A stretch of 64,000 bases of DNA from Bacteroidales bacterium (GTDB lineage: Bacteria > Bacteroidota > Bacteroidia > Bacteroidales > UBA12077), in assembly GCA_028282585.1 (NCBI GenBank), contig JANQHR010000102.1:32001-96000 (forward strand), in the 5' to 3' direction. The notes under the pieces were generated by a model that was not told the origin of the DNA, did not search any database, and worked only from the letters and a program-made list of their open reading frames with translations. Every line of letters starts with the position of its first letter. Position 1 is the first letter of the stretch. Of this stretch, positions 51,094 through 64,000 are shown piece after piece. The position numbers were made by a program, and so were the translations under genes.

Positions 51094-52752
51094 TTAAGCT
51101 AATACCAAAACTAATACTTGTGCCAGAAGTATTCTCAAAAACATGGTTAAAGGATAAACCGTGGCATATGCGCTTGCTTGTGCGTGCACAGGTGCAATTG
51201 AATTTGCAAATTCCAATGCCGGTGGATCTGTCATTGAACCTGATAATAAACCGCACAGAGTTAAATAATTCAGTTTTAATAAACGTCCAATAATACCGAC
51301 TACTATTAAGGGGATAAATGTAATTGCTGCACCATAGAGCATCCAAATATATCCACCATTTACAACGGTTTCCCAAAAATGTTTCCCTGATCCTAATCCC
51401 ACACAAGCCAAAAACAAGACAATTCCTAATTCACGAATAAATCGATTTGCACTTGGTGTCATGTAAAAATCAAAGTTTCCTACACGGCCTTTATGTCCGA
51501 GGATTAATGCAACAATTAAAGGACCGCCTGCTAAACCTAACTTTGCAGGAGCAGGTAAACCCGGGATAAAAAATGATATGCTTCCTATCAGAATTCCAAG
51601 GAAAATTCCAATAAACAAAGGAATTAAGTTAGGATGTGATAGGTCATGTAAAGAATTACCTAAAAATCCTGCTATTTCGTTCATGCGGTTTCTGGCTCCA
51701 ACTACCCGAAGTGTATCACCAAATTCAATAGTTGTATTGCCAGCAGGAATGATCTCCGTTTCGCCCCTGAAAATGCGTGTAATATTTGCAGGAAATAATC
51801 CGGACAGGTTAATATCCTTTATTTGTCGGCCGGTTATTTTACGATTGGTGATTAAAATATGCCGCATAGACATTTGATCGGTAATCTTTATTTTCTTTGC
51901 AGGAGATACTTTTCCAACTTTCAGTTCAAGATGAGGAACACAAACATCAGAACATAATCCAAATAGAATATCACCTTCCTGAAGATGTATTTTATCATCG
52001 GGAATAAGATATTCTCCGTCACGCATCAAACGTGAAAAAACAAATTCTTTATCAAGCGTAGTTTTTAAGAATCTAAGGTTTTTCCCAAACAAATTTGGAT
52101 TAGAAACCAATACCTCGACTGTTTTCGATTGATGAGAACCTGCATCAATTTGCTCTTGATAGTTTTCTATCTCTTTGTTCAGTTTGATTTTAAATACGCC
52201 CCGAACTATAAACATAACCAAAATTATTCCCATAATACCAAATGGATAAGCAACGGCATAAGCCATTCCTGAGACTTCCGCTAAAGCATTCCCGTTTGTG
52301 AACTGATCAGATATTAACGATTGTATTGCACCTAAACTGGGTGTATTGGTCACTGCTCCACTGAATAAACCAGCAATAATGTGAGTTTCCATGTTAAATA
52401 GTTTATGAATAGTAAAAGCAGTAAAAAAACCAAATACCACGATCAATGTCGCCAGCAGGTTTAATTTCATTCCATTATTGCGGAATGAAGAAACAAAACG
52501 TGGGCCAATCTCAATGCTAATGGAATAGACAAAAAGAATCAGACCAAATTCCTTTGTAAAATGCAACACCTGATGATTTATTGTTGCTCCTAAATGCCCG
52601 ATGAGCAATCCACTAAATAACACTCCGGCTATACCTAATTTGATGTTTCCAAACTTGATTTTACCAAATAAGATTCCCAGAATTCCTGTGAGGGCCAAAA
52701 ACACCAAGGATGATGCCGTGTTGCTGTTCGAAAATAATTTTAAGATCTCCAT
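51094..52752 (-). CDS. YidE/YbjL (AspT-family) duplicated transporter with two TrkA-C domains
   Basis: LGIAGVLF, EFGLILFVYSI...GP.F, GAVTNTPSLGA, YAVAYPFG, GSMTDPPAL and YATVYPLTMFLR. Confidence 0.92.
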   Translation of the reverse strand: MEILKLFSNSNTASSLVFLALTGILGILFGKIKFGNIKLGIAGVLFSGLLIGHLGATINHQVLHFTKEFGLILFVYSISIEIGPRFVSSFRNNGMKLNLLATLIVVFGFFTAFTIHKLFNMETHIIAGLFSGAVTNTPSLGAIQSLISDQFTNGNALAEVSGMAYAVAYPFGIMGIILVMFIVRGVFKIKLNKEIENYQEQIDAGSHQSKTVEVLVSNPNLFGKNLRFLKTTLDKEFVFSRLMRDGEYLIPDDKIHLQEGDILFGLCSDVCVPHLELKVGKVSPAKKIKITDQMSMRHILITNRKITGRQIKDINLSGLFPANITRIFRGETEIIPAGNTTIEFGDTLRVVGARNRMNEIAGFLGNSLHDLSHPNLIPLFIGIFLGILIGSISFFIPGLPAPAKLGLAGGPLIVALILGHKGRVGNFDFYMTPSANRFIRELGIVLFLACVGLGSGKHFWETVVNGGYIWMLYGAAITFIPLIVVGIIGRLLKLNYLTLCGLLSGSMTDPPALEFANSIAPVHAQASAYATVYPLTMFLRILLAQVLVLVLA

Positions 52753-52870
52753 TTTCTAAATAGATTTAAGTTAACAACAAATTGTGCCCGCGGGAAATAA
52801 AGAAAATGGATCTGTAAAAAAAGATCGATACGTGCTTTATACCGCGAAAGCAGATATCATTCAAGAAACA

Positions 52871-53140
52871 ATTAAGACAGGTCTCCTGGCTTTCCCGACT
52901 TTCAGCGCCTTCTCTCACCCATCGAAGCTTTAGCGAAGGCGGGTCACTCCGCACTTCAAACTAAACTATTCTTTGAGTAAAATGGCAAAATTGCTGAAAG
53001 CACGAATCTGAGTGTATCAGAATCAGGATTACAGTTGCGCGTCAGCCCACGATTTCATACCTCCGTTTTCCTGAGAACTATCAGGACGGCAGGCAAGGCA
53101 CGTGATTCCCTTTTAAACTCTTTTTAAAGAGTATCTTAAT
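52871..53140 (-). ncRNA. Cobalamin riboswitch (with two palindromic insertions) upstream of the YidE/YbjL gene
   Basis: On the minus strand: P1 attaaga/tcttaat, AAAAGGGAAtcacg, gctgacgcgcaACTGTAA, GCCAtt, gaGAAGGCg and B12 box AAGCCAGGAGACCTGTC. Confidence 0.88.
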
Positions 53141-53167
53141 TTTACATGATCTGAATGAACTTGGATG

Positions 53168-53215
53168 CAAAGATATGCATTAATTTCTTGTTGGGAAAAA
53201 TTATAATTATATTTG
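53168..53215. promoter_or_regulatory. Back-to-back Bacteroidota promoters driving the two riboswitches
   Basis: TATCTTTG on the minus strand (53168-53175) and TATATTTG on the plus strand (53208-53215), both matching TAnnTTTG. Confidence 0.7.
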
Positions 53216-53220
53216 CCATA

Positions 53221-53384
53221 TAATTGGTTCCTATTTTTCTTATTAGGAAAAGGATTAAAAGGGAATGTCGTTAAATTCGGCAACAGTTCCCGCTGCTGTG
53301 ATGGCTGCAAAGTTTTAACAATATGTCACTCTTTTACGGGGGGAAGGCGTTAAAACAGGCCTAAGTCAGAAGACCTGCCAATTA
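53221..53384 (+). ncRNA. Cobalamin riboswitch upstream of the btu-like operon
   Basis: P1 taattgg/ccaatta, AAAAGGGAA, ACAGttCCCGCtgCTGTga, gTCACT...GGGAAGGC and AAGTCAGAAGACCTGCC. Confidence 0.94.
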
Positions 53385-53503
53385 AACATAGATTTTGTAG
53401 CCTGCGGAGAACGGGTAGCTAATCATTCCGATGTTTTATTGGCCTTCCAAATTCATCGTATGCTGCAAGATCAAGTTATTAACTCAATTAAATTGCAGTA
53501 ACG

Positions 53504-54082
53504 ATGAAAAATTCAAAAATCACAATCCGCTTTGGAGTTTTATCGCTCCTTGTTTTGGCAGCAGCTTTAAGCCGATTATTACCACATCCCCCTAATTTTG
53601 CCCCTATTGGTGCTATGGCTTTATTTGGAGCCGCTTATTATAAGCAAAAATATCTGGCTTTTATAGTTCCAATTATTTCCATGTGGATTAGCGACTTGCT
53701 AATTAACAATATTTTATATAACCAGTATTTTGATCATTTTGTGTGGTTCTACCAAGGTTTTTATTGGACCTATGGTGCATTTATATTGATTGTTATCATT
53801 GGATTCTTTTTGCTTAAAAAAGTTAAAATTAAGAATCTGATAATTGCGAGTTTAGCTGCATCAGTTACGTTTTTCTTAGTGTCTAATTTTGGAGTGTGGG
53901 CATCAGGATCAATGTATCCTAAAACCGTAAGTGGATTATTAGCTTGTTACACCGCAGGAATACCTTTTTTAAAAAATACAATAACAGGAGACCTTATCTA
54001 TTCAATAGCCCTTTTTGGAGCTTTTGAACTAGCGAAGTATCGATTCCCTGTATTAAAATTACAAACAAGAAAAATCTATTAA
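53504..54082 (+). CDS. DUF6580 family, ECF S-component-like membrane protein (candidate corrinoid transporter)
   Basis: SRLLPHPPNFAPIGAMALFG, SD, FFLVSNFGVW, MYP and CY.AGIPF; about 6 TM helices; first gene after a B12 riboswitch. Confidence 0.8.
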   Translation: MKNSKITIRFGVLSLLVLAAALSRLLPHPPNFAPIGAMALFGAAYYKQKYLAFIVPIISMWISDLLINNILYNQYFDHFVWFYQGFYWTYGAFILIVIIGFFLLKKVKIKNLIIASLAASVTFFLVSNFGVWASGSMYPKTVSGLLACYTAGIPFLKNTITGDLIYSIALFGAFELAKYRFPVLKLQTRKIY

Positions 54083-54159: not shown

Positions 54160-57100
54160 ATGAAACAAATTTACTCATTTTTATTAGTCTTTGCAGGGCT
54201 ATTTTTATTAGGGTTTAATTCTTACAGTCAGGAATTTACCCACAAGGAAGATTTAAACTTAGAGCGAATACGCAGTTCTTCTGACTACCGGAAAACAGTA
54301 AAATTTGCTGATTTGTTTACTTTTCCGGCAGAAGTTGATGTAAAAAGCGAAATTTCAACTAATGCTGACATTACTATCAATTTCTCATCTACCAATGAAT
54401 CTAATATACTATTTGATGGTTACTATTATTCCATCTGGGGAGGGCAATATTTTTATTGCAGAATTCCAGCAAATAGTTACGGTAAAGATACTCTAACAAT
54501 TACGATAACCTATAATGGAATTGAAGCCATTTCTAAAGTTGTGGTAGAAATTGATCCTATTGAATGCAAAGATGATGCATATGATTTGGACATAGGAGAC
54601 ACTCTGGAAGTTGCTGTTACAAGTAATGATAATCCCAAAACCTTTTTTGATTATACAAGTTTTGAAATTATTCAAAATGCAACATCAGGGACACATCAAA
54701 TTACAGGTGACGGAACAATTGAGTATATCAATTCGGAAAGTACTCCTAATTATACTAACGATACCATTATTTACCGCATTGCCGATACGGATTCTAACTA
54801 CGACACGGCAATGGTAGTAATGAGTATCCACAAAGGTTCATATGTTACGAAGGTTTTTGATTACCTGCCTGCTCCTGGTCAATTTGTTAATAAATCCTGG
54901 GCAGATCCCGTTGCCGGAGAAAAAGTAATTGGAAATACCAGCGGAGGAGCTTCTCTTGGTGGGTTTGGCGGGTATATTATAGTAGGGTTTGACCAAGCAA
55001 TCGTTAATCGTAATAATAATGCTTATGGTGTTGACTTTACAGTGAAGGGAAATGCTTTTGGCGGATGGGCCGAGCCTGCCGCTGTTCAGGTAATGAAAGA
55101 TGAAAACGGTAACGGATTGCCTGACGATACCTGGTATGAGTTGGCCGGTTCGGAGTATTATTTCAATACTTCTGTTAAAAACCTTACTATGACCTATTAT
55201 AACCCCAAATACAATACACGTGCTACCATACCGTATTCAACGAATAAAGGGATTAATGGAGCAATGCGTACCAACAGTTTCCACAACCAGCCCTATTATC
55301 CCGATCCATATGGCTTTGAAATTTCCAAAGATTCTGTTTCATTCACCGGTACTTTAACCAAGTTTTTGCTTGATAAAAGCAGGTCCGGTTTTGTAACCGC
55401 AAAACGACTCCCCCGCTTTGGTTATGCGGATAATAAACCCAATGGTAGCAATTCGACTATACCAAATAACCCTTATACAGACACAAAAGGAAATGGCTTT
55501 GATTTGGAATGGGCTGTTGATGCAGAAGGGAATTATGTTGATTTAGATACTGTACATTTTGTAAAAGTATACAGTACGGTACAAGAAGATGGCGGATGGC
55601 TTGGAGAAGTATCCCCTGAAATCTTTGAAATTGGTATTACTACACCGGATCCTTCTTATGTGCCGGAAGACTATTATATACATTCGATCGGAGCCGGTCA
55701 GTTACAAGTATTAAAAGGCACATCCTTCCAATACGAAGGAATCCTTTTCAAAAACGGAATCCCTCAAGAAGGTAATTCAACCTGGTCCACAACAGTTGAT
55801 TCAGTAGGTGCAATTGACAATACCGGGTTGTTTACGGCAAACAAACTGGGAACTACCACCCTCAGATTCCATATTGACCCTGCTGTTCAAAAGGACAGCA
55901 TCACAATTGAAGTAGTTGATTTACAAAGTGTTTATCTGGAGCTTGAAGGCAATACCAATTCGCCGGACAGCACCACAGTTACCAAAGGAAGTTCTCTTTA
56001 TATAAACGCACAGGGTGAAGATAACCGTACAAGTCCTTTCAATAATTTTGTTTATGAAAGCTATAACTGGACTTCAACCAATCCGGAAATAGGAACCATA
56101 ACCAACGGTTTATTTTACGCGAATCAAACCGGGACAACTTCAATTATCGCCACCTCTGTTCATCACCCGGATTTGGCAGACACCATGGTTGTGGAAGTAC
56201 TGCCTATACCTGCATTAGAGAATGTATCTGATACCATTGAAATTGCTTATGAACAGCGCGAAGGAAGCTTTAGCAATACCGATTTGTTTTCAATAGAAGG
56301 TGGCGCTACCATTTTTATGGAGAGTTTAGAAAATGCCAATAACTCTTTAATGCTTAGCTTAGACCAAAACGAGCTTAACTACGAACTTGCTCTCGGTGCA
56401 TTTGGTTATTTCCCGGTTACTTTTACACTGGAAGCCTATAATGAAACCCAGGAAAAGACAATTGTTTTCAAGGCTGCAGAGCCCCAAACCCAAAACAGCC
56501 TGGTATTTGTAAATGGCGGACAATTCATGGACTTGAACCATCCCACCATGTTAATACAGTACAATTCATCAACAAACAAAACCGATACGGTTGACAATTA
56601 CATTGCCGGAGCTACTTCGGTACAGGATATGCTTGTTGATGGCAACTATGCCTTTGTATCGGCTGATTATTACATAACCCGATATGATTTGGACGAAGGT
56701 TTTGCCACTGATTCAATATATACGCAGGATGTAAGTCCTACCGAAGCCGACGGCACGGGAACTGAAGGTGCAGGTGTAAATCATAAAATGGCTATTTACA
56801 ATAACCTGCTTTTGGTTACTCGTCAGTTTAGTTCTGCTGCCCCACAGGATGGGTATAACGTTCGCATATACAACAAAGGTGATTTATCCTTAGTAAAGAA
56901 AATCGCCGTTTCTGACCAGGCAACTGATGTTGTTGTGGCTGGCGAAACCGCTTATGTGATGATTAATGGGGGCTTTGCCGGAACAACCAGTTCTTTGGCT
57001 GTTATCGACCTGAAAACCTTAACCTTAAATCGTGAAATTGATTTAGGCGAAGATGGTTTAGGTGTGATGCAGATGATAGTGAAAGATTCATTGATTTACG

Positions 57101-59814
57101 GTATCCGTTTAGCCAGCTTCATGGGAACTTTTGGTTCAGGTATTATCACTTATAATATAAATACAGGTGCAATAAATGAATACGAATATACGGCCGGAAT
57201 TTCATACGACTCATCACCATTGGCCATTGAACCTATGTTTGGCGATACCATATTTGTGAAAAAAGACCTGGGTTATGTGGCATTCAACACAAAAGATAAT
57301 ACGTTTGGAACGGATAAATATTTCGAGATACCATCTTATTATACACAGGATTTAGAACATATAGGAAAAGGCTCGACCTACAATCCTGAAGATGGTAAAT
57401 TCTATATTGCTTATGCTTATTGGCACGGCACGGGTGTTGGTCAGATTTATAATAGTGCCTCAGATAGTATAGGTTCGTTTGAAGGTGTTGGCGCATCGCC
57501 TGAAGTAGCAAAGATTGCAGATATTTATGAAGGTAATAACAACCCTACTGCAAGTGGAGAATTAGCTGAAAATGTAAAGTTTGAGGAGCAAACGGAAATT
57601 ATATTGGGACCAAACATCTTTGAGGATAGTGAAGATATTGAACCCACTATTTACTTGTACAACCCGGTAGAATATGAGTGGTTAAGTTATGATATCGATA
57701 GTCGCACCTTGACGGCCAACTTACAGGATTTTACACCAGTTGAAACAGAGGTTGATATAATTTTGCAAGCCTTTGACTCACAGGGAGCATTTGTGACGGA
57801 AACTCTTACTCTTTATTTTGTAGAGGATCAGGCTCCGGTAGTATTAAATGCTATTGAAGATGTTGTGGTATTAGAAGATGCAGATGATTACAGCATCTCA
57901 TTAGAAAATGTTTTTACCGATGTTGATAATGAAGATACAGCCATAACTAAATCAATCGTAAGCAATTCGAATAATGCTATTGTTTTGGCAGACATTTCAG
58001 GTAATGAATTAACCTTATCTTTTATTGCCGATGCATTCGGTAAAGCCGAAATTGTGACTGAAGCTTTATCTAACGGATTGACAATTACCGACACATTTGT
58101 TGTAACTGTATCTGCTTTTGATGATGCACCAATGGTTGCCAATCCAATAGCGGATGTTACTGCAAGATATGAAGATCCTGATAAAGTGATAGATATTAGC
58201 AATGTATTTACTGATGTTGATGATGAAACCATAAGTGTTTCCATATTGTCGAACTCAAATCAGGAATATGCTGCGGCTAGTTTATCAGGTTCAGAATTAA
58301 CGATCAACTTTATTACAGAGGGAGCAACAACTTTAATTATAGAAGGCAGTTCAAACGATAAATCAGCTTACGATACCGTAGTTGTTAATGTCGTTAGTGA
58401 ACTAGCCCCTGTGGTTAATAATCCAATAGCGGATATTACTGCCAATGAAGATGACATCATTGCCGGAATTGATATCGAATTGGTATTTGACGACCCGGAC
58501 AGCGACAATGCCAGTATCACAAAAGCCGTTAAAACCATTTCGAACAGTAGCTTACTAAGTGCAAGTATTGATGGAAATAGTCTATCAATTAGTCTGTTTG
58601 AAAATCAGTTCGGAACATCAGAAGTAGTTATTGAAGCAACTTCGAATGGACTAACCGTTACCGATACATTCATGGTAACCGTAAATGCGGTTGATGATGC
58701 ACCAGTGGTTGCTAATCCGATAACAGAGTTTAATGCTGACGAAGACGAAACCATTGCTGCAATTGATATTTCTACTGTGTTTGATGACATAGACAACGAT
58801 AATGCTGCCATAACAAAAACTGTTCAGTCTGTTTCGAACAGAAGCTTGCTAAGTGCAAGTATTGATGGAAATAGTTTATCAATTAGTCTGTTTGAAAATC
58901 AGTTCGGAACATCAGAAGTGGTTATTGAAGCAACTTCGAATGGACTAAGCGTTACCGATACATTTACGATAACCGTAAATGCGGTTGATGATGCACCAGT
59001 GGTAACCAATCCAATAGCTGATATATCAGCAAAAGATAATGCTCGTGACCAGGTTGTTGATATAAGCAATTTATTTACCGATGTTGATGATGAAACAGTG
59101 ACTGTTTCTGTATTGTCGAACTCTAACCCAGAGTTTGCTGCGGCAACATTATCAGGTACTGAATTGACCATCGACTTTATTAAAGAAGGAACCACAACTT
59201 TAATCATCGAAGGAAGTTCTAATAGTAAATCGGTTAATGACATAGTATTAGTTACCGTGGTTGCCGACCAGGCTCCTGAAGTAGCAAACCCAATTGCTGA
59301 TATTTCAGTTATAGAGAACGCTGCCGACTCAGTTATCTCATTGGTAAATGTATTTACGGATGCCGACGACGACGATGGCGCCATAACCAAAACAGTGGTA
59401 AGCAATTCGAACGATGCCATTGTTACGGCAGGTATTACAGGTAATGAATTAACCTTATCATTTGTCGCCGAAGCTACAGGGGAAGCCGAAATTACAGTTG
59501 AAGGAATATCAAACGGCAAATCAGTGGCAGAGACTTTCACCGTAACCATTAATCCTGCAACAGGTATGGAAGAGGTTTCTTTTACTGATATAGTACTTTA
59601 TCCGAATCCGTCAAACGGTATCTTCAGGGTAAATACAAACTTAAGTGAATCATGTGAAGTTCGTATTTTTAATATGAATGGAAATATGGTTTATGCTGAA
59701 AATAATTATACTGGCAACAAGGAGATTGATATTAGTAATCAACCTTCTGGTCAGTATATATTAACCATAAAACATGGAAACAGCATTCAAACGTTATCCA
59801 TAATTAAAAAATAG
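54160..59814 (+). CDS. Large T9SS-secreted multidomain protein: APGQF (BtuH-like) domain, Ig-like domains, BtuG/YncE-like beta-propeller, six Ig/cadherin-like repeats, CTD
   Basis: Signal peptide ending in Q; YLPAPGQFVN...SLGGFGGY...DENGNGLPDDTWYELAG; VFVNGGQF...VQDMLVDGNYAFV; repeated APVVxNPIAD; C-terminal LYPNPSNG...GQYIL..IIKK. Confidence 0.8.
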   Translation: MKQIYSFLLVFAGLFLLGFNSYSQEFTHKEDLNLERIRSSSDYRKTVKFADLFTFPAEVDVKSEISTNADITINFSSTNESNILFDGYYYSIWGGQYFYCRIPANSYGKDTLTITITYNGIEAISKVVVEIDPIECKDDAYDLDIGDTLEVAVTSNDNPKTFFDYTSFEIIQNATSGTHQITGDGTIEYINSESTPNYTNDTIIYRIADTDSNYDTAMVVMSIHKGSYVTKVFDYLPAPGQFVNKSWADPVAGEKVIGNTSGGASLGGFGGYIIVGFDQAIVNRNNNAYGVDFTVKGNAFGGWAEPAAVQVMKDENGNGLPDDTWYELAGSEYYFNTSVKNLTMTYYNPKYNTRATIPYSTNKGINGAMRTNSFHNQPYYPDPYGFEISKDSVSFTGTLTKFLLDKSRSGFVTAKRLPRFGYADNKPNGSNSTIPNNPYTDTKGNGFDLEWAVDAEGNYVDLDTVHFVKVYSTVQEDGGWLGEVSPEIFEIGITTPDPSYVPEDYYIHSIGAGQLQVLKGTSFQYEGILFKNGIPQEGNSTWSTTVDSVGAIDNTGLFTANKLGTTTLRFHIDPAVQKDSITIEVVDLQSVYLELEGNTNSPDSTTVTKGSSLYINAQGEDNRTSPFNNFVYESYNWTSTNPEIGTITNGLFYANQTGTTSIIATSVHHPDLADTMVVEVLPIPALENVSDTIEIAYEQREGSFSNTDLFSIEGGATIFMESLENANNSLMLSLDQNELNYELALGAFGYFPVTFTLEAYNETQEKTIVFKAAEPQTQNSLVFVNGGQFMDLNHPTMLIQYNSSTNKTDTVDNYIAGATSVQDMLVDGNYAFVSADYYITRYDLDEGFATDSIYTQDVSPTEADGTGTEGAGVNHKMAIYNNLLLVTRQFSSAAPQDGYNVRIYNKGDLSLVKKIAVSDQATDVVVAGETAYVMINGGFAGTTSSLAVIDLKTLTLNREIDLGEDGLGVMQMIVKDSLIYGIRLASFMGTFGSGIITYNINTGAINEYEYTAGISYDSSPLAIEPMFGDTIFVKKDLGYVAFNTKDNTFGTDKYFEIPSYYTQDLEHIGKGSTYNPEDGKFYIAYAYWHGTGVGQIYNSASDSIGSFEGVGASPEVAKIADIYEGNNNPTASGELAENVKFEEQTEIILGPNIFEDSEDIEPTIYLYNPVEYEWLSYDIDSRTLTANLQDFTPVETEVDIILQAFDSQGAFVTETLTLYFVEDQAPVVLNAIEDVVVLEDADDYSISLENVFTDVDNEDTAITKSIVSNSNNAIVLADISGNELTLSFIADAFGKAEIVTEALSNGLTITDTFVVTVSAFDDAPMVANPIADVTARYEDPDKVIDISNVFTDVDDETISVSILSNSNQEYAAASLSGSELTINFITEGATTLIIEGSSNDKSAYDTVVVNVVSELAPVVNNPIADITANEDDIIAGIDIELVFDDPDSDNASITKAVKTISNSSLLSASIDGNSLSISLFENQFGTSEVVIEATSNGLTVTDTFMVTVNAVDDAPVVANPITEFNADEDETIAAIDISTVFDDIDNDNAAITKTVQSVSNRSLLSASIDGNSLSISLFENQFGTSEVVIEATSNGLSVTDTFTITVNAVDDAPVVTNPIADISAKDNARDQVVDISNLFTDVDDETVTVSVLSNSNPEFAAATLSGTELTIDFIKEGTTTLIIEGSSNSKSVNDIVLVTVVADQAPEVANPIADISVIENAADSVISLVNVFTDADDDDGAITKTVVSNSNDAIVTAGITGNELTLSFVAEATGEAEITVEGISNGKSVAETFTVTINPATGMEEVSFTDIVLYPNPSNGIFRVNTNLSESCEVRIFNMNGNMVYAENNYTGNKEIDISNQPSGQYILTIKHGNSIQTLSIIKK
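57826..59553 (+). repeat. Six intragenic repeats of about 95 aa each
   Basis: Units begin DQAPVV, DDAPMV, ELAPVV, DDAPVV, DDAPVV and DQAPEV; 58538-58709 and 58832-59003 are near-identical in DNA (offset 294 nt). Confidence 0.9.
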
Positions 59815-59859: not shown

Positions 59860-62316
59860 ATGTCGAAAAGAATTCTCTATATATGTGTAATGCTTGTATG
59901 CATGAAACCGCTACAAGCGCAATTTATTTCAGAAATAATTGAGTATAAACCTGCACCCGGACAGTTTATTAATACTTCTGCCTGGGGAATGCCTTCGTCG
60001 GCGCAAAGTTTAGTTGGAAGTATGAGCGGAGCTTTAAGCCTTGGAGCTTTTGGAGGATATGTTGTATTCAAATTCGACAATCCGGTTGAAAACCATACCG
60101 ACAATCCTTATGGGATGGATTTTGTGATTTATGGCAATCCTTTAAAAAATCTGTCTACTCCAAATTTAAATAACAATGTAACCTGGGCTGAACCGGGCAT
60201 TGTTTCCGTTATGAAAGATGAGAATGAAAACGGATTGCCTGATGATACCTGGTACGAACTGGCCGGCTGCGATTATTTCTTTTCGACAACCCAAAAAAAT
60301 TACGAAGTAACTTATACTAACCCGGGCGGCACTACTGCCACTGATGTTCCATGGACCGACAATCAGAGTGATTCGGGTTTTGTATTTGCCAACTCTTTCC
60401 ATTCACAGGCTTATTATCCATTGCCTGAGAATTTCTCTAATGTAGATACTTCCCAATATACATTAAGAGGAACACGCATCAAAGATTTTGTTGACCGAAC
60501 CAACCCAAGTTACATAACCGCAGCAGGTCGTCTGTGGGGTTACGTTGATAACAATTTAAGAAATACATACAACGGGTATCCCGATAATCCCTACACCGAT
60601 AATGTGGAAGAAGGCTCAGGAGGTGATGCTTTTGACATTAGTTGGGCAGTGGATGCTGACGGAAATTATGTTGACCTTAATGAAATTAATTTTGTTAAAG
60701 TCCATAATGCTACTTTAGCTGATGCAGGATGGTTGGGTGAAGTCTCCACCGAAATCACAGGAGCTTTCGATGTAGCACCTGATGCAAGCTATTCGGAATG
60801 GGATTCAACATCATTGGTGCTAAATAATATACCTATTCTTGTAAGTGTTGGCGCAAACTATCAACTGGAAGCTGCCTTTTTTGTAAAAGGACGAAAAATT
60901 AATATAGACAACATAGAATGGGCAGCAACGCCCGAATCAAAAGTATCCATTGATGAAAATAACTTATTAGCAACTGTCGATACCGGAAATGTAACTATTA
61001 CTGCCAGTTGCACTTACGCGGGAAATACGTATTCAACCTCAATGATTACGACCATTATTGCACCTGCTGCTATAGAAATTGTTTTTGACCAAACTGAAAT
61101 TCAGGTAGGGCAAAAATATTTAATAAAAGCTGTTGTAAAGGACCAAAATGAAGGGGAACTTTCAGGATTAACCAATGTATGGGAACCATCTAATGATAAT
61201 GTACAGGTAATAGAAGAAAATGACAGTTCATACCTTGCAGGAGTAAAAACCGGCACATCCACTATTTATGTTTATCCGGCAGGTTACCCCGACATTCGCG
61301 ACTCAATTGAGGTAACGATTCTGGAAGCAGCTGATTCAATTGCTGCTTTCTTAACAATTAAAACCAACACGCATACATTTGTTCCTAAAACCAAAATTGA
61401 ACTAAGTAATTTTGAACTCACCCCGTTTATTTCAGAATCAAACCATAATTACGGCCTTAGTGATGTTCCAAATGTTACGGCTGCACACGCTGTGGCTTCG
61501 ATATTTGAGAATGTTTCGTTCGAAAGCGACCTGCGTTTCAAAGACACAGAGGAAAATGGACTTTACCTATACAAACTACCGGTAAGTTCCGGTTCGCAAA
61601 TAAAATACTATTACGGTTATGGTAATAGTGATGTTGATAAAAGCTGTTGGATGATAAATATTGGGGATAATACCTATTTCAATAATCTTGAAGATGTGGT
61701 GCTTTTCGAAAACGATAATTTAGTTGCCTACTATGTAGAGGATATAACTGCTAACTGGAACCTTTACAATTTAACCGGTTCGGAAACAGCAATTAATGTG
61801 GGTGCATCGATTGATATAACTCTTATGCAGGAAACCTTTTATCTGTATAGTGAGACAACCGTTATAAACGAAGGAATTTCTCCGGCAGCAAACATAGCAG
61901 TATATATTAACGGAGAAGTTTTAATGGAAGGAGGTGACACCATTAAAACAAATAACGAGGGAAAAGCAACACTAATTTTCAACGAGCCGAGCTCTTATAC
62001 CATAGCAGCTGCAACAGAACAAATCAATTTAGTTGTAAACAATAGTACTGATATTCAGGAAAAAACTACAAAGGATTTTACTGTTTATCCTAATCCGGCA
62101 AATGAGAGATTCTCAATCGCTTTTCCATTCTCAAAAAATGAAATCATAGATTTAAAAATCTTCTCAGCAACAGGCCGCTTGGTTTATCAGAATAAATACC
62201 ATAGTTCGAATTCACTGATAAATATAAATACAACAAGCTGGAGTAACGGGTTATATATTATACAAATTGAATCATATTCCGGAAGAGTTGTAAAAAAAAT
62301 GATGATTAACCATTAA
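59860..62316 (+). CDS. T9SS-secreted protein: APGQF (BtuH-like) domain, two Ig-like domains, possible DUF4430/transcobalamin-like domain, CTD
   Basis: Signal peptide LQA-Q; YKPAPGQFIN...SLGAFGGY...DENENGLPDDTWYELAG...GWLGEVSTEI; C-terminal VYPNPA...GLYII. Confidence 0.8.
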   Translation: MSKRILYICVMLVCMKPLQAQFISEIIEYKPAPGQFINTSAWGMPSSAQSLVGSMSGALSLGAFGGYVVFKFDNPVENHTDNPYGMDFVIYGNPLKNLSTPNLNNNVTWAEPGIVSVMKDENENGLPDDTWYELAGCDYFFSTTQKNYEVTYTNPGGTTATDVPWTDNQSDSGFVFANSFHSQAYYPLPENFSNVDTSQYTLRGTRIKDFVDRTNPSYITAAGRLWGYVDNNLRNTYNGYPDNPYTDNVEEGSGGDAFDISWAVDADGNYVDLNEINFVKVHNATLADAGWLGEVSTEITGAFDVAPDASYSEWDSTSLVLNNIPILVSVGANYQLEAAFFVKGRKINIDNIEWAATPESKVSIDENNLLATVDTGNVTITASCTYAGNTYSTSMITTIIAPAAIEIVFDQTEIQVGQKYLIKAVVKDQNEGELSGLTNVWEPSNDNVQVIEENDSSYLAGVKTGTSTIYVYPAGYPDIRDSIEVTILEAADSIAAFLTIKTNTHTFVPKTKIELSNFELTPFISESNHNYGLSDVPNVTAAHAVASIFENVSFESDLRFKDTEENGLYLYKLPVSSGSQIKYYYGYGNSDVDKSCWMINIGDNTYFNNLEDVVLFENDNLVAYYVEDITANWNLYNLTGSETAINVGASIDITLMQETFYLYSETTVINEGISPAANIAVYINGEVLMEGGDTIKTNNEGKATLIFNEPSSYTIAAATEQINLVVNNSTDIQEKTTKDFTVYPNPANERFSIAFPFSKNEIIDLKIFSATGRLVYQNKYHSSNSLININTTSWSNGLYIIQIESYSGRVVKKMMINH

Positions 62317-62322
62317 GAAATC

Positions 62323-64000
62323 ATGAAATATAAAATTACTCTCATTTTGCTTTTTATTAGCGTTAAACTCTTTTCTCAGGCAGTAATTGATACCATAGCA
62401 ATTGAAGAAGTAACCATTTCAGCCAAAAGGATATTTAAGAAGGAATATGCAGGCCAAAAAATATCCAAGGTAGATTCTGTTGTATTGTTAGATAAATTCA
62501 ACCAGAATCTTTCTGATGTATTATCGGAAAATACTTCGGTATACATTAAAGAGCATGGACGAGGTGCATTAGCAACTGCATCGTTTAGAGGAACAGCAGC
62601 AACACATACTCAAGTTTTATGGAATGGAATGAATATTAACTCCCCCATGTTGGGAATGGTAGATTTTTCGTTGATCCCTGTGTATATTATTGACGATTTA
62701 AGCTTAAACCATGGGGGTAGTTCCATTAAAGAACAAAGCGGAGGTTTAGGTGGAAGCGTAAACATCAACAATAAGGTTGACTGGAACAACCGTTTTAGCG
62801 GCCGGTATTACCAGGGAGTTGGAAGTTACTCAAGCTTCGATGAGTTTGGGCAGGTTAACATTGGCAATAAAAAAATTCAATCCAAAACTCGCGTATATTC
62901 TAACAAATCAAAAAATGATTACTCTTTTATAAATAAATCAATTACCGAACGCCCCAAAGTTAAAAATGAGAATGCTGATTATTCAAAATATGGATTTGCC
63001 CAAGAAATCTATTTCAGGACAAACGAATATAATTACATTTCTCTTAAAACATGGGGACAACTTGCTCAACGGTCACTACCAACAGTCCAAAGTTACGAAG
63101 GTTCTGATCATGCCAATTTAAACTCACAAGACGATAATACATTTAAGGCTGTTGCCGAATGGAAACATTACAGAAGCGAAAGTAAACTTCATATTAGTTC
63201 TGGTTATGACTACCAATCTCTTGATTATATATTGGAAAATGAGGTAAATGGTATAGGAAAAGTGCCTGCAATTTATTCTGAAAGTATCATGCAAAGTATC
63301 CATGGTAATGCAAAATATGGTTATGACTTTACTGAGAATTTCCAATTTAATTTATCGCTTAATTATAAACATTACAATGTTAACACCAAAGATTCGGTAC
63401 TAAAAACCGGGTATGATGTTATACGAGATGACTTTTCTGTATTTGGAGGATTCTACTTAAACGTTTTTAAGAAATTTAATATCTCTTTAATGCTTCGTGA
63501 TGATATTATAGATTTTAATTTATCACCTTTAATATTTAACCTGGGTGTTAGTTACAAACCTTTTTTAAATACTGATTTAGTGATTAAAGGTAGCTTTGCC
63601 CGAAATTACCACCATCCTACCCTTAATGACTTATATTGGCAACCTGGCGGTAATCCTGAACTAAAAGCAGAAGAAGGATATACTGAAGATATGACTATTA
63701 CGTATGCTTTAAGTAATAGTAGAATTCAAGTGAGCAGTGAATTAACGGGCTTTTATTCCGACATAAACAACTGGATTATTTGGCTACCCAGTTTCAAAGG
63801 ATACTGGGAACCATTTAATATTAAAAGAGTGAAATCTTATGGTTTGGAATATAACCTTAAAGTAACAAGCTACATTCAAAAGTTAAATATTCAATTACAA
63901 GGAAATTACGGCCTTACAAAATCATTAAACTATGGCGATCCTTTAACATGGGGTGATGAATCGTATAAAAAGCAACTACCATTTATTCCCGTGCATTCCG
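62323..64000 (+). CDS. btuB: BtuB-like TonB-dependent cobalamin receptor (truncated by the window end; not in the ORF track)
   Basis: ATG at 62323; MKYKITL...SVYIKEHGRGALATASFRGTAATHTQVLWNGMNINSPMLGMVDFSLIP and later RNYHHPTLNDLYWQPGGNPEL; lies in a B12-riboswitch operon. Confidence 0.82.
   Translation, partial: MKYKITLILLFISVKLFSQAVIDTIAIEEVTISAKRIFKKEYAGQKISKVDSVVLLDKFNQNLSDVLSENTSVYIKEHGRGALATASFRGTAATHTQVLWNGMNINSPMLGMVDFSLIPVYIIDDLSLNHGGSSIKEQSGGLGGSVNINNKVDWNNRFSGRYYQGVGSYSSFDEFGQVNIGNKKIQSKTRVYSNKSKNDYSFINKSITERPKVKNENADYSKYGFAQEIYFRTNEYNYISLKTWGQLAQRSLPTVQSYEGSDHANLNSQDDNTFKAVAEWKHYRSESKLHISSGYDYQSLDYILENEVNGIGKVPAIYSESIMQSIHGNAKYGYDFTENFQFNLSLNYKHYNVNTKDSVLKTGYDVIRDDFSVFGGFYLNVFKKFNISLMLRDDIIDFNLSPLIFNLGVSYKPFLNTDLVIKGSFARNYHHPTLNDLYWQPGGNPELKAEEGYTEDMTITYALSNSRIQVSSELTGFYSDINNWIIWLPSFKGYWEPFNIKRVKSYGLEYNLKVTSYIQKLNIQLQGNYGLTKSLNYGDPLTWGDESYKKQLPFIPVHS

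Follow-up and report, generated by a model that had tools for sequence, protein, structure and literature searches.

A predicted type IX secretion cargo joining a BtuH-type domain and a distant BtuG-like propeller in a Bacteroidales B12 operon

Why would a vitamin B12 uptake operon encode a protein of 1884 amino acids (aa) in which modules resembling 2 different B12 binders are strung together with immunoglobulin (Ig)-like and cadherin-like domains? This question is raised by P0001, the product of the open reading frame (ORF) at 54160-59814 (+) in a 64,000-nucleotide (nt) stretch of contig JANQHR010000102.1 from a Bacteroidales bacterium, which is referred to here as the window. Our answer, reached from sequence comparison and structure prediction, is that P0001 is probably a corrinoid-capture protein whose expression is repressed by B12 and which is exported through the type IX secretion system (T9SS).

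Domain layout of P0001 and its BtuH-type module

The clearest link between P0001 and B12 is the domain at aa 226-491. In phmmer searches against all PDB chains this domain aligns over its whole length with residues 393-655 of 8BLW_B, the H-domain of BtuG1 (E 8e-44), and with residues 222-488 of 7BIZ_A, which is BtuH2 (E 7e-41). 7BIZ is the structure of BtuH2 with cyanocobalamin, and 8BLW_B contains BtuG1 together with its fused H-domain, as described in PMC8941943 and PMC10404256. Section 8 of PMC8941943 names Gln333, Asn399, Phe401, His476, Tyr510, Trp511, Trp577, and Leu578 as B12 contacts of BtuH2. This list and that of the BtuG2 pocket discussed below were drawn from the main text of the respective papers. 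The BtuH2 contacts were mapped by hand along the phmmer alignment, in which the chain index equals the paper number minus 100 and 8/8 residue types agree. Six of these 8 main-text contacts are identical in P0001, namely Q241, N298, F300, H375, W480, and L481. The assignment of aa 226-491 as a true homolog of the BtuH2 B12-binding domain is well supported by these alignments, and the domain would be expected to bind cobamides.

From its N-terminus to its C-terminus, P0001 comprises a signal peptide, an Ig/cadherin-like region, the BtuH-type domain, Ig spacers of the Big_2 type, a beta-propeller, acidic repeats, and a T9SS C-terminal sorting domain (CTD), and these features stand far beyond chance level. 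Their positions in the window are as follows.

54160..59814, + strand: ORF of P0001, a single uninterrupted frame of 1884 aa
54160..54228, + strand: signal peptide MKQIYSFLLVFAGLFLLGFNSYSQ with no lipobox cysteine, judged by eye from the translation, no predictor being used
54229..54834, + strand: aa 24-225 at the N-terminal end, probably Ig/cadherin-like (Big_9 matches weakly, E 0.0046, short of its cut-off)
54835..55632, + strand: BtuH-type domain, predicted to bind B12 (APGQF...GNGLPDDTWYEL), aa 226-491 (phmmer against PDB)
55633..56499, + strand: Ig-like spacer region, aa 492-780, 289 aa (Big_2 in two stretches, E 1.6e-8; HL_N-beta, E 6.9e-7, 29.4 bits)
56500..57522, + strand: seven-bladed propeller, distant BtuG homolog, aa ~781-1121 (AlphaFold2, Foldseek, VIA, and hhalign; no Pfam match)
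57520..57831, + strand: degenerate acidic repeat 0, the seventh, aa 1121-1224 (19% identity in alignment to the other six)
57832..59565, + strand: six acidic cadherin-like repeats, aa 1225-1802 (sequence alignment and AlphaFold2 model)
59575..59811, + strand: T9SS type A CTD, aa 1813-1884 (Por_Secre_tail 8.2e-13, TIGR04183 1.9e-13, CTD of PDB 8GLK_D E 1e-4)

The Big_2 spacers sit between the BtuH-type domain and the propeller and score 34.8 bits against a cut-off of 22.8. The region at aa 24-225 draws ESM Atlas feature matches to Big_9/Cadherin_5 clusters at 0.92, which we treat as a lead only, and it is kept in 7 of the 150 listed representatives of the propeller family described below. The mature protein is strongly acidic, with a net charge of -185 and an isoelectric point of 4.05.

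Much of this layout had been anticipated by the first-pass annotation, which was made from the letters of the sequence and described P0001 as a fusion of BtuH-like and BtuG-like modules on an Ig stalk. The 1884-aa frame is indeed one uninterrupted ORF, the APGQF/GNGLPDDTWYEL domain lies at 54835-55632 where 54841-55635 had been given, and the homology to BtuH2 agrees with the proposed BtuH-like identity of that domain. The Ig-like spacers, the six acidic repeats, and the CTD are also present, with the degenerate seventh repeat now added in front of the six. The idea of an Ig stalk held in part: Ig spacers exist, but they lie between the modules, and the stalk on the anchor side would be formed by the C-terminal cadherin-like repeats. 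Projection of the modules away from the cell is plausible from the CTD and these repeats.

The propeller and its kinship with BtuG

The motif VFVNGGQF begins at aa 782 and opens an all-beta region. An AlphaFold2 (AF2) model of aa 741-1167, built from an alignment of 80 sequences, is all-beta over model residues 40-379 with a predicted local distance difference test score (pLDDT) of 81.2 and a predicted template modeling score (pTM) of 0.80, and the structures closest to it are seven-bladed propellers. In Foldseek, 13/13 of the rows listed through rank 16 are BtuG1, BtuG2, BtuG3, or 3DSM, the BtuG homolog of B. uniformis, with E values from 1e-16 to 4e-13 and target-normalized TM-scores (TMt) of 0.74-0.80. 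Other propellers have E values of at least 6e-12, the value of the first non-BtuG structure, and TMt of at most 0.67, with YncE at rank 39. VIA-align, a comparison independent of Foldseek that covered 48,161 representative chains, likewise ranked 3 BtuG structures at the top (Z 31.8, 31.3, and 31.0, with the next row at 27.6), and these superpose on the model with a root-mean-square deviation (rmsd) of 2.4-3.0 Å across 304-309 residues. BtuK was considered as the nearest propeller and rejected, as 9S6C is found at Foldseek rank 32 (E 7e-10) and VIA rank 9 (Z 26.5) and 4R5O at VIA rank 28, all of them below BtuG.

Profile comparison points the same way. When the propeller family (A2, 80 sequences) was aligned with the BtuG family (A3, 26 sequences) in hhalign, the match had 98.1% probability and an E value of 9e-14 over 289 columns, spanning from the N-x-G-x-F loop to the last strand at approximately 15-16% identity between the propeller and BtuG. 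A search of the bacterium's own genome with the A2 profile gave 43 matches. In 40 of these the match begins no earlier than model position 269 and extends to 416-421, which means that the CTD part is included. The 3 matches to the propeller part are P0001 itself and 2 canonical DUF5074 BtuG proteins (E 4.7e-18 and 2e-8), both of which are encoded after btuB behind a cobalamin riboswitch. Taken together, the profile comparison, the own-genome search, and the structural comparisons place the propeller in the BtuG superfamily as a distant member. The proposed likeness to BtuG thus stands as far as grouping is concerned, since the closest structures are those of BtuG and not adhesin or enzyme propellers, but the relationship is a distant one, there is no DUF5074 match, and most of the hydrogen-bonding residues of BtuG2 are not retained.

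Whether the propeller binds a corrinoid is a separate matter, for which we compared it with the BtuG2 pocket. The 13 pocket residues given by a 2026 review (PMC13616437) and the 2023 paper were mapped onto the canonical BtuG of the same locus, which keeps all 13 of them, and then carried through the hhalign alignment to P0001.

BtuG2 Phe58, F789 in P0001: identical
BtuG2 Gln93, Q822 in P0001: identical
BtuG2 Asn107, D836 in P0001: conservative
BtuG2 Trp194, F939 in P0001: conservative
BtuG2 Tyr335, W1088 in P0001: conservative
BtuG2 Glu55, Gly in P0001: changed
BtuG2 Ser131, gap in P0001: gapped
BtuG2 Ser195, Gly in P0001: changed
BtuG2 Tyr196, Thr in P0001: changed
BtuG2 Gln219, Gly in P0001: changed
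BtuG2 Tyr239, gap in P0001: gapped
BtuG2 Trp272, Ser in P0001: changed
BtuG2 Tyr316, Lys in P0001: changed

Several observations weigh against a corrinoid-capture role for P0001 and are best considered together. Of the pocket residues named in these sources, 2/13 are identical, 3/13 are conservative, and 8/13 are changed or gapped, in an alignment of approximately 16% identity in which loop positions are uncertain. A check of ligand contacts, which the first-pass annotation had suggested, is favorable for the BtuH-type domain and ambiguous for the propeller, and even in the former Tyr510 and Trp511 of the main-text BtuH2 list have become F411 and V412. No Pfam family matches aa 741-1167 at E <= 1, DUF5074 included; BLASTP of the propeller against the BtuG of its own locus reaches only E 0.58; and phmmer of the propeller alone against PDB gave no relevant match. 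Since these direct sequence comparisons failed, the homology of the propeller to BtuG is visible only by profiles and structure. In the structural comparison, all seven-bladed propellers reach a VIA Z of 23-27, making the BtuG lead of approximately 3.5 Z units real but modest. Finally, the propeller family is rare, being found in 2/401 sampled genomes of the phylum including that of the window (E <= 1e-8 with P0008 as the single query).

The divergent pocket leads to an alternate explanation in which P0001 has a single corrinoid site. Here the BtuH-type domain would perform the capture, while the propeller either lost B12 binding or never had it and serves as a spacer or as a docking or scaffold domain for the loops of BtuB, the canonical BtuG, or another surface partner. 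This would fit the 8/13 pocket positions that are not conserved, the missing DUF5074 match, and the finding that BtuK2, a propeller from the B12 locus of B. thetaiotaomicron, did not bind cobamides according to PMC13616437. It would also fit the architecture of most propeller-family members scanned, which are stand-alone proteins of signal peptide, propeller, and CTD. BtuG1, however, is described in a preprint (bioRxiv 10.1101/2024.02.16.580637) as having picomolar affinity for cobalamin with approximately 24% identity to BtuG2 and approximately 60% of contacts in common, and divergent contacts are thus compatible with binding. In addition, the aromatic pocket equivalents and Gln93 are kept across the family, and the propeller recurs with 2 different B12 modules, BtuH and DUF4465. 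In the hhalign alignment, family members have an aromatic residue opposite Phe58 of the published BtuG2 pocket in 75/80 cases, opposite Trp194 in 77/80, and opposite Tyr335 in 76/80, and Gln93 is matched by Gln in 59/80. We consider the single-site explanation unlikely, though it deserves serious weight, and regard corrinoid binding by the propeller as somewhat more probable than its absence.

The wider family gives context for these domain partnerships. HMMER searches of 1.84 billion cluster representatives recovered 151 proteins at E <= 1e-3, 60 at E <= 1e-10, and 12 at E <= 1e-30. The counts that follow cover 150 listed representatives of the 151, and Pfam scans cover 40 of these 150. A T9SS CTD was found in 38/40 scanned relatives and DUF5074 in 0/40 (Pfam, E <= 0.001), and most of the 40 are proteins of approximately 430 aa consisting of a signal peptide, the propeller, and a CTD. 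The propeller is combined with a BtuH domain in 12/150 representatives, always with the H-domain before the propeller, and one of these 12, P0009, is 1884 aa long, 96% identical to the query, and apparently the same protein. A combination with DUF4465 occurs in 2/150. In locus L017 (7748-12949) an ortholog carries BtuH, propeller, and DUF4465 in one chain, its propeller region being 81% identical to that of P0001.

Export, stalk, and operon

The CTD and signal peptide identify P0001 as a predicted T9SS type A cargo. T9SS machinery is encoded in the same genome, as seen from matches to SprA_N (1.8e-178) and GldM_1st (1.3e-48), and approximately 40 further matches to the A2 profile in the genome end in its CTD part. 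The six acidic repeats preceding the CTD are 93-98 aa long, begin at aa 1225, 1323, 1416, 1514, 1612, and 1705, and are 43-57% identical to the first, with a net charge of -85 for the repeat block. An AF2 model of a single repeat, built with 18 repeat sequences, has a pLDDT of 92.7, and its best Foldseek matches are a fucoidanase accessory domain, E-cadherin EC domains, dystroglycan cadherin-like domains, protocadherins, and SraP cadherin-like modules, at E values of 1e-4 to 5e-3 and query-normalized TM-scores (TMq) of 0.56-0.73. No Pfam cadherin-type model matches the repeats at its curated cut-off, the nearest being Big_9 at 0.035, and the relative P0012 matches Cadherin_4 at 3.4e-11. On the basis of the model, the predicted fold of the repeat is a cadherin/Ig beta-sandwich.

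T9SS cargo may be either secreted or anchored, and this leaves room for a variant of the capture role that differs in localization only. P0001 could be a released scavenger, or "corrinophore," either soluble or vesicle-borne, whose CTD is cleaved without attachment and which must be recaptured once loaded. In B. thetaiotaomicron, BtuH2 was found in both membrane and supernatant fractions according to PMC8941943, and B12-binding proteins have been reported on vesicles. The long repeat stalk directly before the CTD, on the other hand, fits an anchored protein best, and no recapture receptor is evident. Release of this kind is rather unlikely in our judgment. If P0001 is instead anchored, the repeats would be the part nearest the cell because they directly precede the CTD.

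The genomic setting also ties P0001 to B12. The operon, in which P0001 is gene 2, extends from a cobalamin riboswitch to a 2663-aa T9SS protein that lies beyond the window.

53208..53396, + strand: cobalamin riboswitch aptamer at the head of the operon (full-length match 1-189 to Rfam RF00174, 101.5 bits, E 3e-24)
53504..54082, + strand: DUF6580 membrane protein, 192 aa, gene 1 (Pfam PF20221, E 1.8e-60)
59860..62316, + strand: P0002, a second predicted T9SS cargo, 818 aa, gene 3, with an N-terminal BtuH-type domain (aa 20-304: 8BLW_B E 9e-47, 7BIZ_A E 3e-35; CTD 1e-14)
62323..64000, + strand, cut by the window end: BtuB-type TonB-dependent receptor, gene 4, 670 aa in full (Plug 3.5e-12; weak TIGR01779 TonB-B12 match)
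beyond the window on the contig: canonical lipoprotein BtuG (P0005), gene 5, 375 aa, Cys17 (DUF5074 2e-23; BtuG2 E 9e-132)
beyond the window, L002 3537-11528: 2663-aa T9SS protein, gene 6, the end of the operon (DUF4465 E 8e-52 at aa 2013-2186)

The riboswitch lies 108 nt 5' of the first gene. The genes of the operon all share one strand, and those within the window are separated by 6-77 nt. Because the riboswitch precedes it, the operon is probably expressed under B12 scarcity. A scan for promoters and terminators found 22 promoter-like sites against 40.6 expected, using a consensus that does not cover Bacteroidota promoters, and no terminator-like site in the intergenic gaps. The 2663-aa protein also has four BNR_assoc_N-type repeats, a CTD, and acidic cadherin-like repeats that resemble the ones in P0001, and the contig stops approximately 200 nt past its gene. 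DUF4465 is described in PMC13398666 as the B12-binding domain of the BtuJ type.

We compared this arrangement with 4 related loci, on three Bacteroidales contigs from metagenome-assembled genomes and in one genome of the same order. Counting the window, a cobalamin riboswitch is found upstream of the operon encoding the P0001-like giant in 5/5 loci. In 3/4 related loci the order is riboswitch, DUF6580, giant, BtuH-CTD protein, BtuB, and BtuG, as in the P0001 operon, with the DUF6580 gene in the same position in these 3/4. The fourth has the giant behind a riboswitch of its own, next to another riboswitch that is accompanied by btuB, btuG, and btuH.

This setting bears on a further explanation, that P0001 has nothing to do with B12, being an adhesin or other surface protein whose gene just happens to be placed in the operon. 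Cadherin-like and Ig-like repeats together with a T9SS CTD are indeed typical of adhesins. The strong BtuH homology with its kept contact residues, the riboswitch upstream in every locus compared, and the B12 binders that make up all the closest structures of the propeller argue against it, and we consider such a role very improbable.

A corrinoid-capture role for P0001 would proceed as follows. With the operon behind a cobalamin riboswitch, P0001 would be made mainly when B12 is scarce, would cross the inner membrane via its ordinary signal peptide, and would then be exported by the T9SS by means of its CTD, followed by C-terminal anchoring at the surface or release. The seven cadherin-like acidic repeats near the anchor would form an extended stalk, probably stiffened by Ca2+, that keeps the distal modules off the outer membrane. 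The BtuH-type domain, for which homology to BtuH2 is clear, would bind cobamides as BtuH2 does via the corrin ring and the nucleotide loop, and the acidic face of the propeller may provide a second, less certain site for corrinoids. A role as the lid of BtuB does not fit the propeller, because the canonical lipoprotein BtuG encoded next to BtuB has that role. Captured corrinoid would then be passed to BtuB and BtuG, whose genes follow two and three positions downstream and whose products form a complex.

Several other observations concern the operon and its surroundings. The DUF6580 protein may be an inner-membrane corrinoid transporter; our literature search found no paper mentioning DUF6580. 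The middle of P0002 (aa 305-740) has no Pfam or PDB match and is conserved in 1/4 related loci, namely L017 (3e-189). For its aa 490-740 the ESM Atlas score was as low as 0.76, and 34% of one cluster hinted at DUF4430, a signal too weak to use. A second cobalamin riboswitch at 52859-53153 (-), scoring 70.2 bits, faces the opposite direction, back to back with the operon riboswitch at a distance of 54 nt, and heads a 552-aa transporter at 51094-52752 (-) with Asp-Al_Ex and TrkA_C domains, which is not a usual B12-regulated gene. Elsewhere in the genome, a second B12 locus (L013, G000:C65:32000-48000) contains a riboswitch, btuB, and a DUF5074 BtuG followed by CobU, CobT, CobS, and a CobC-like phosphatase, and these salvage genes suggest that the organism remodels or salvages corrinoids. 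The fourth cobalamin riboswitch of the genome (L014, G000:C116:84000-94000) is followed by genes for NrdD, which is the anaerobic ribonucleotide reductase, for a DUF2721 protein, and for the activase NrdG; here B12 would repress an enzyme that works without B12.

Relation to known B12-binding proteins

Chains that hold two B12 folds were known before. PMC10404256 and PMC13616437 describe BtuG1 of B. thetaiotaomicron, also called BtuGH (BT1490), as a naturally occurring fusion of BtuG and BtuH that has two B12 sites, and btuH alleles carrying beta-propeller or PKD domains had been listed in PMC8941943. The earlier statement that these folds are normally encoded separately is thus only partly right, as BT1490 fuses both. 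P0001 resembles BT1490 in having a BtuG-type seven-bladed propeller and a BtuH-type domain in one chain within a riboswitch-controlled btuB locus, and chain 8BLW_B is both the best PDB sequence match of its BtuH domain (E 8e-44) and the top VIA match of its propeller (Z 31.8). BT1490, however, is a 663-aa lipoprotein with the propeller first and the H-domain C-terminal, and it acts as the lid of BtuB1, whereas P0001 has 1884 aa, no lipobox, and the order H-domain, approximately 290 aa of Ig spacers, propeller, seven cadherin-like repeats, and T9SS CTD. Its propeller is approximately 16% identical and has no DUF5074 match, and a separate canonical BtuG adjoins BtuB. Relative to BT1490, P0001 is new in four respects: its modules stand in the opposite order with long Ig spacers between them, it is predicted to be exported by the T9SS and not lipidated, it has a cadherin-like stalk, and its propeller belongs to a family so diverged that Pfam has no model for it. 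Section 5.1 of the 2026 review (PMC13616437) puts the H-domain of BT1490 at the N-terminus, while the primary papers and the 8BLW_B alignment (393-655) show it to be C-terminal.

Other known B12 binders share parts of this architecture. BtuH2 (BT1956, 7BIZ) has a homologous binding domain of approximately 270 aa with 6/8 of the main-text contacts identical, has Ig-like domains in its chain, and belongs to a btuB operon. It is a surface-exposed lipoprotein whose binding domain is C-terminal and whose N-terminal part consists of three PKD domains, whereas P0001 has the binding domain near its N-terminus and a C-terminal T9SS anchor signal. With BtuG2 (BT1954, 8BMX/8BN0, DUF5074) the propeller shares seven blades, the N-terminal N-x-G-x-F loop, a C-terminal VG-I-x-P strand, and an acidic surface, at a profile probability of 98.1% and an rmsd of 2.4 Å over 304 residues. 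In contrast to BtuG2, it has no DUF5074 match, differs in most hydrogen-bonding residues, and is an internal domain, neither a lipoprotein nor a lid adjacent to BtuB. BtuK1 (BT1486, 9S6C) also combines an Ig-type domain with a seven-bladed propeller in a B12 locus, and its propeller is described as binding B12 in PMC13616437, but phmmer of the propeller against PDB gave no sequence match to it, and its structural rank is below that of BtuG. BtuJ/DUF4465 is a further accessory B12 module that occurs in the 2663-aa protein of the operon and fused to the propeller in relatives, but not in P0001.

To our knowledge, work to date on the accessory B12 binders BtuG, BtuH, BtuJ, and BtuK has dealt with outer-membrane lipoproteins from gut Bacteroides, organisms that lack a T9SS. 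SprA was found in 0/14 control genomes, B. thetaiotaomicron included, and our literature search found no description of T9SS-delivered B12 binders.

A broader proposal, which we hold tentatively and rate a little below an even chance, is that the propeller represents a branch of the BtuG superfamily (151 clusters at 50% identity) that has not been described before, is exported by the T9SS, and binds corrinoids without serving as a transporter lid. In some non-gut Bacteroidales it would be strung with BtuH and DUF4465 modules on cadherin-like stalks, forming modular "fishing lines" that reach outward with 2-3 corrinoid sites of different selectivity and feed BtuB-BtuG. Cooperation between the sites of BtuGH is called uninvestigated in the 2026 review (PMC13616437). 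If binding by P0001 is confirmed, the protein would offer a natural test case for cooperation between BtuH-type and BtuG-type sites, a function could be assigned to a propeller family that Pfam does not cover, and the known display routes for vitamin scavengers would be extended.

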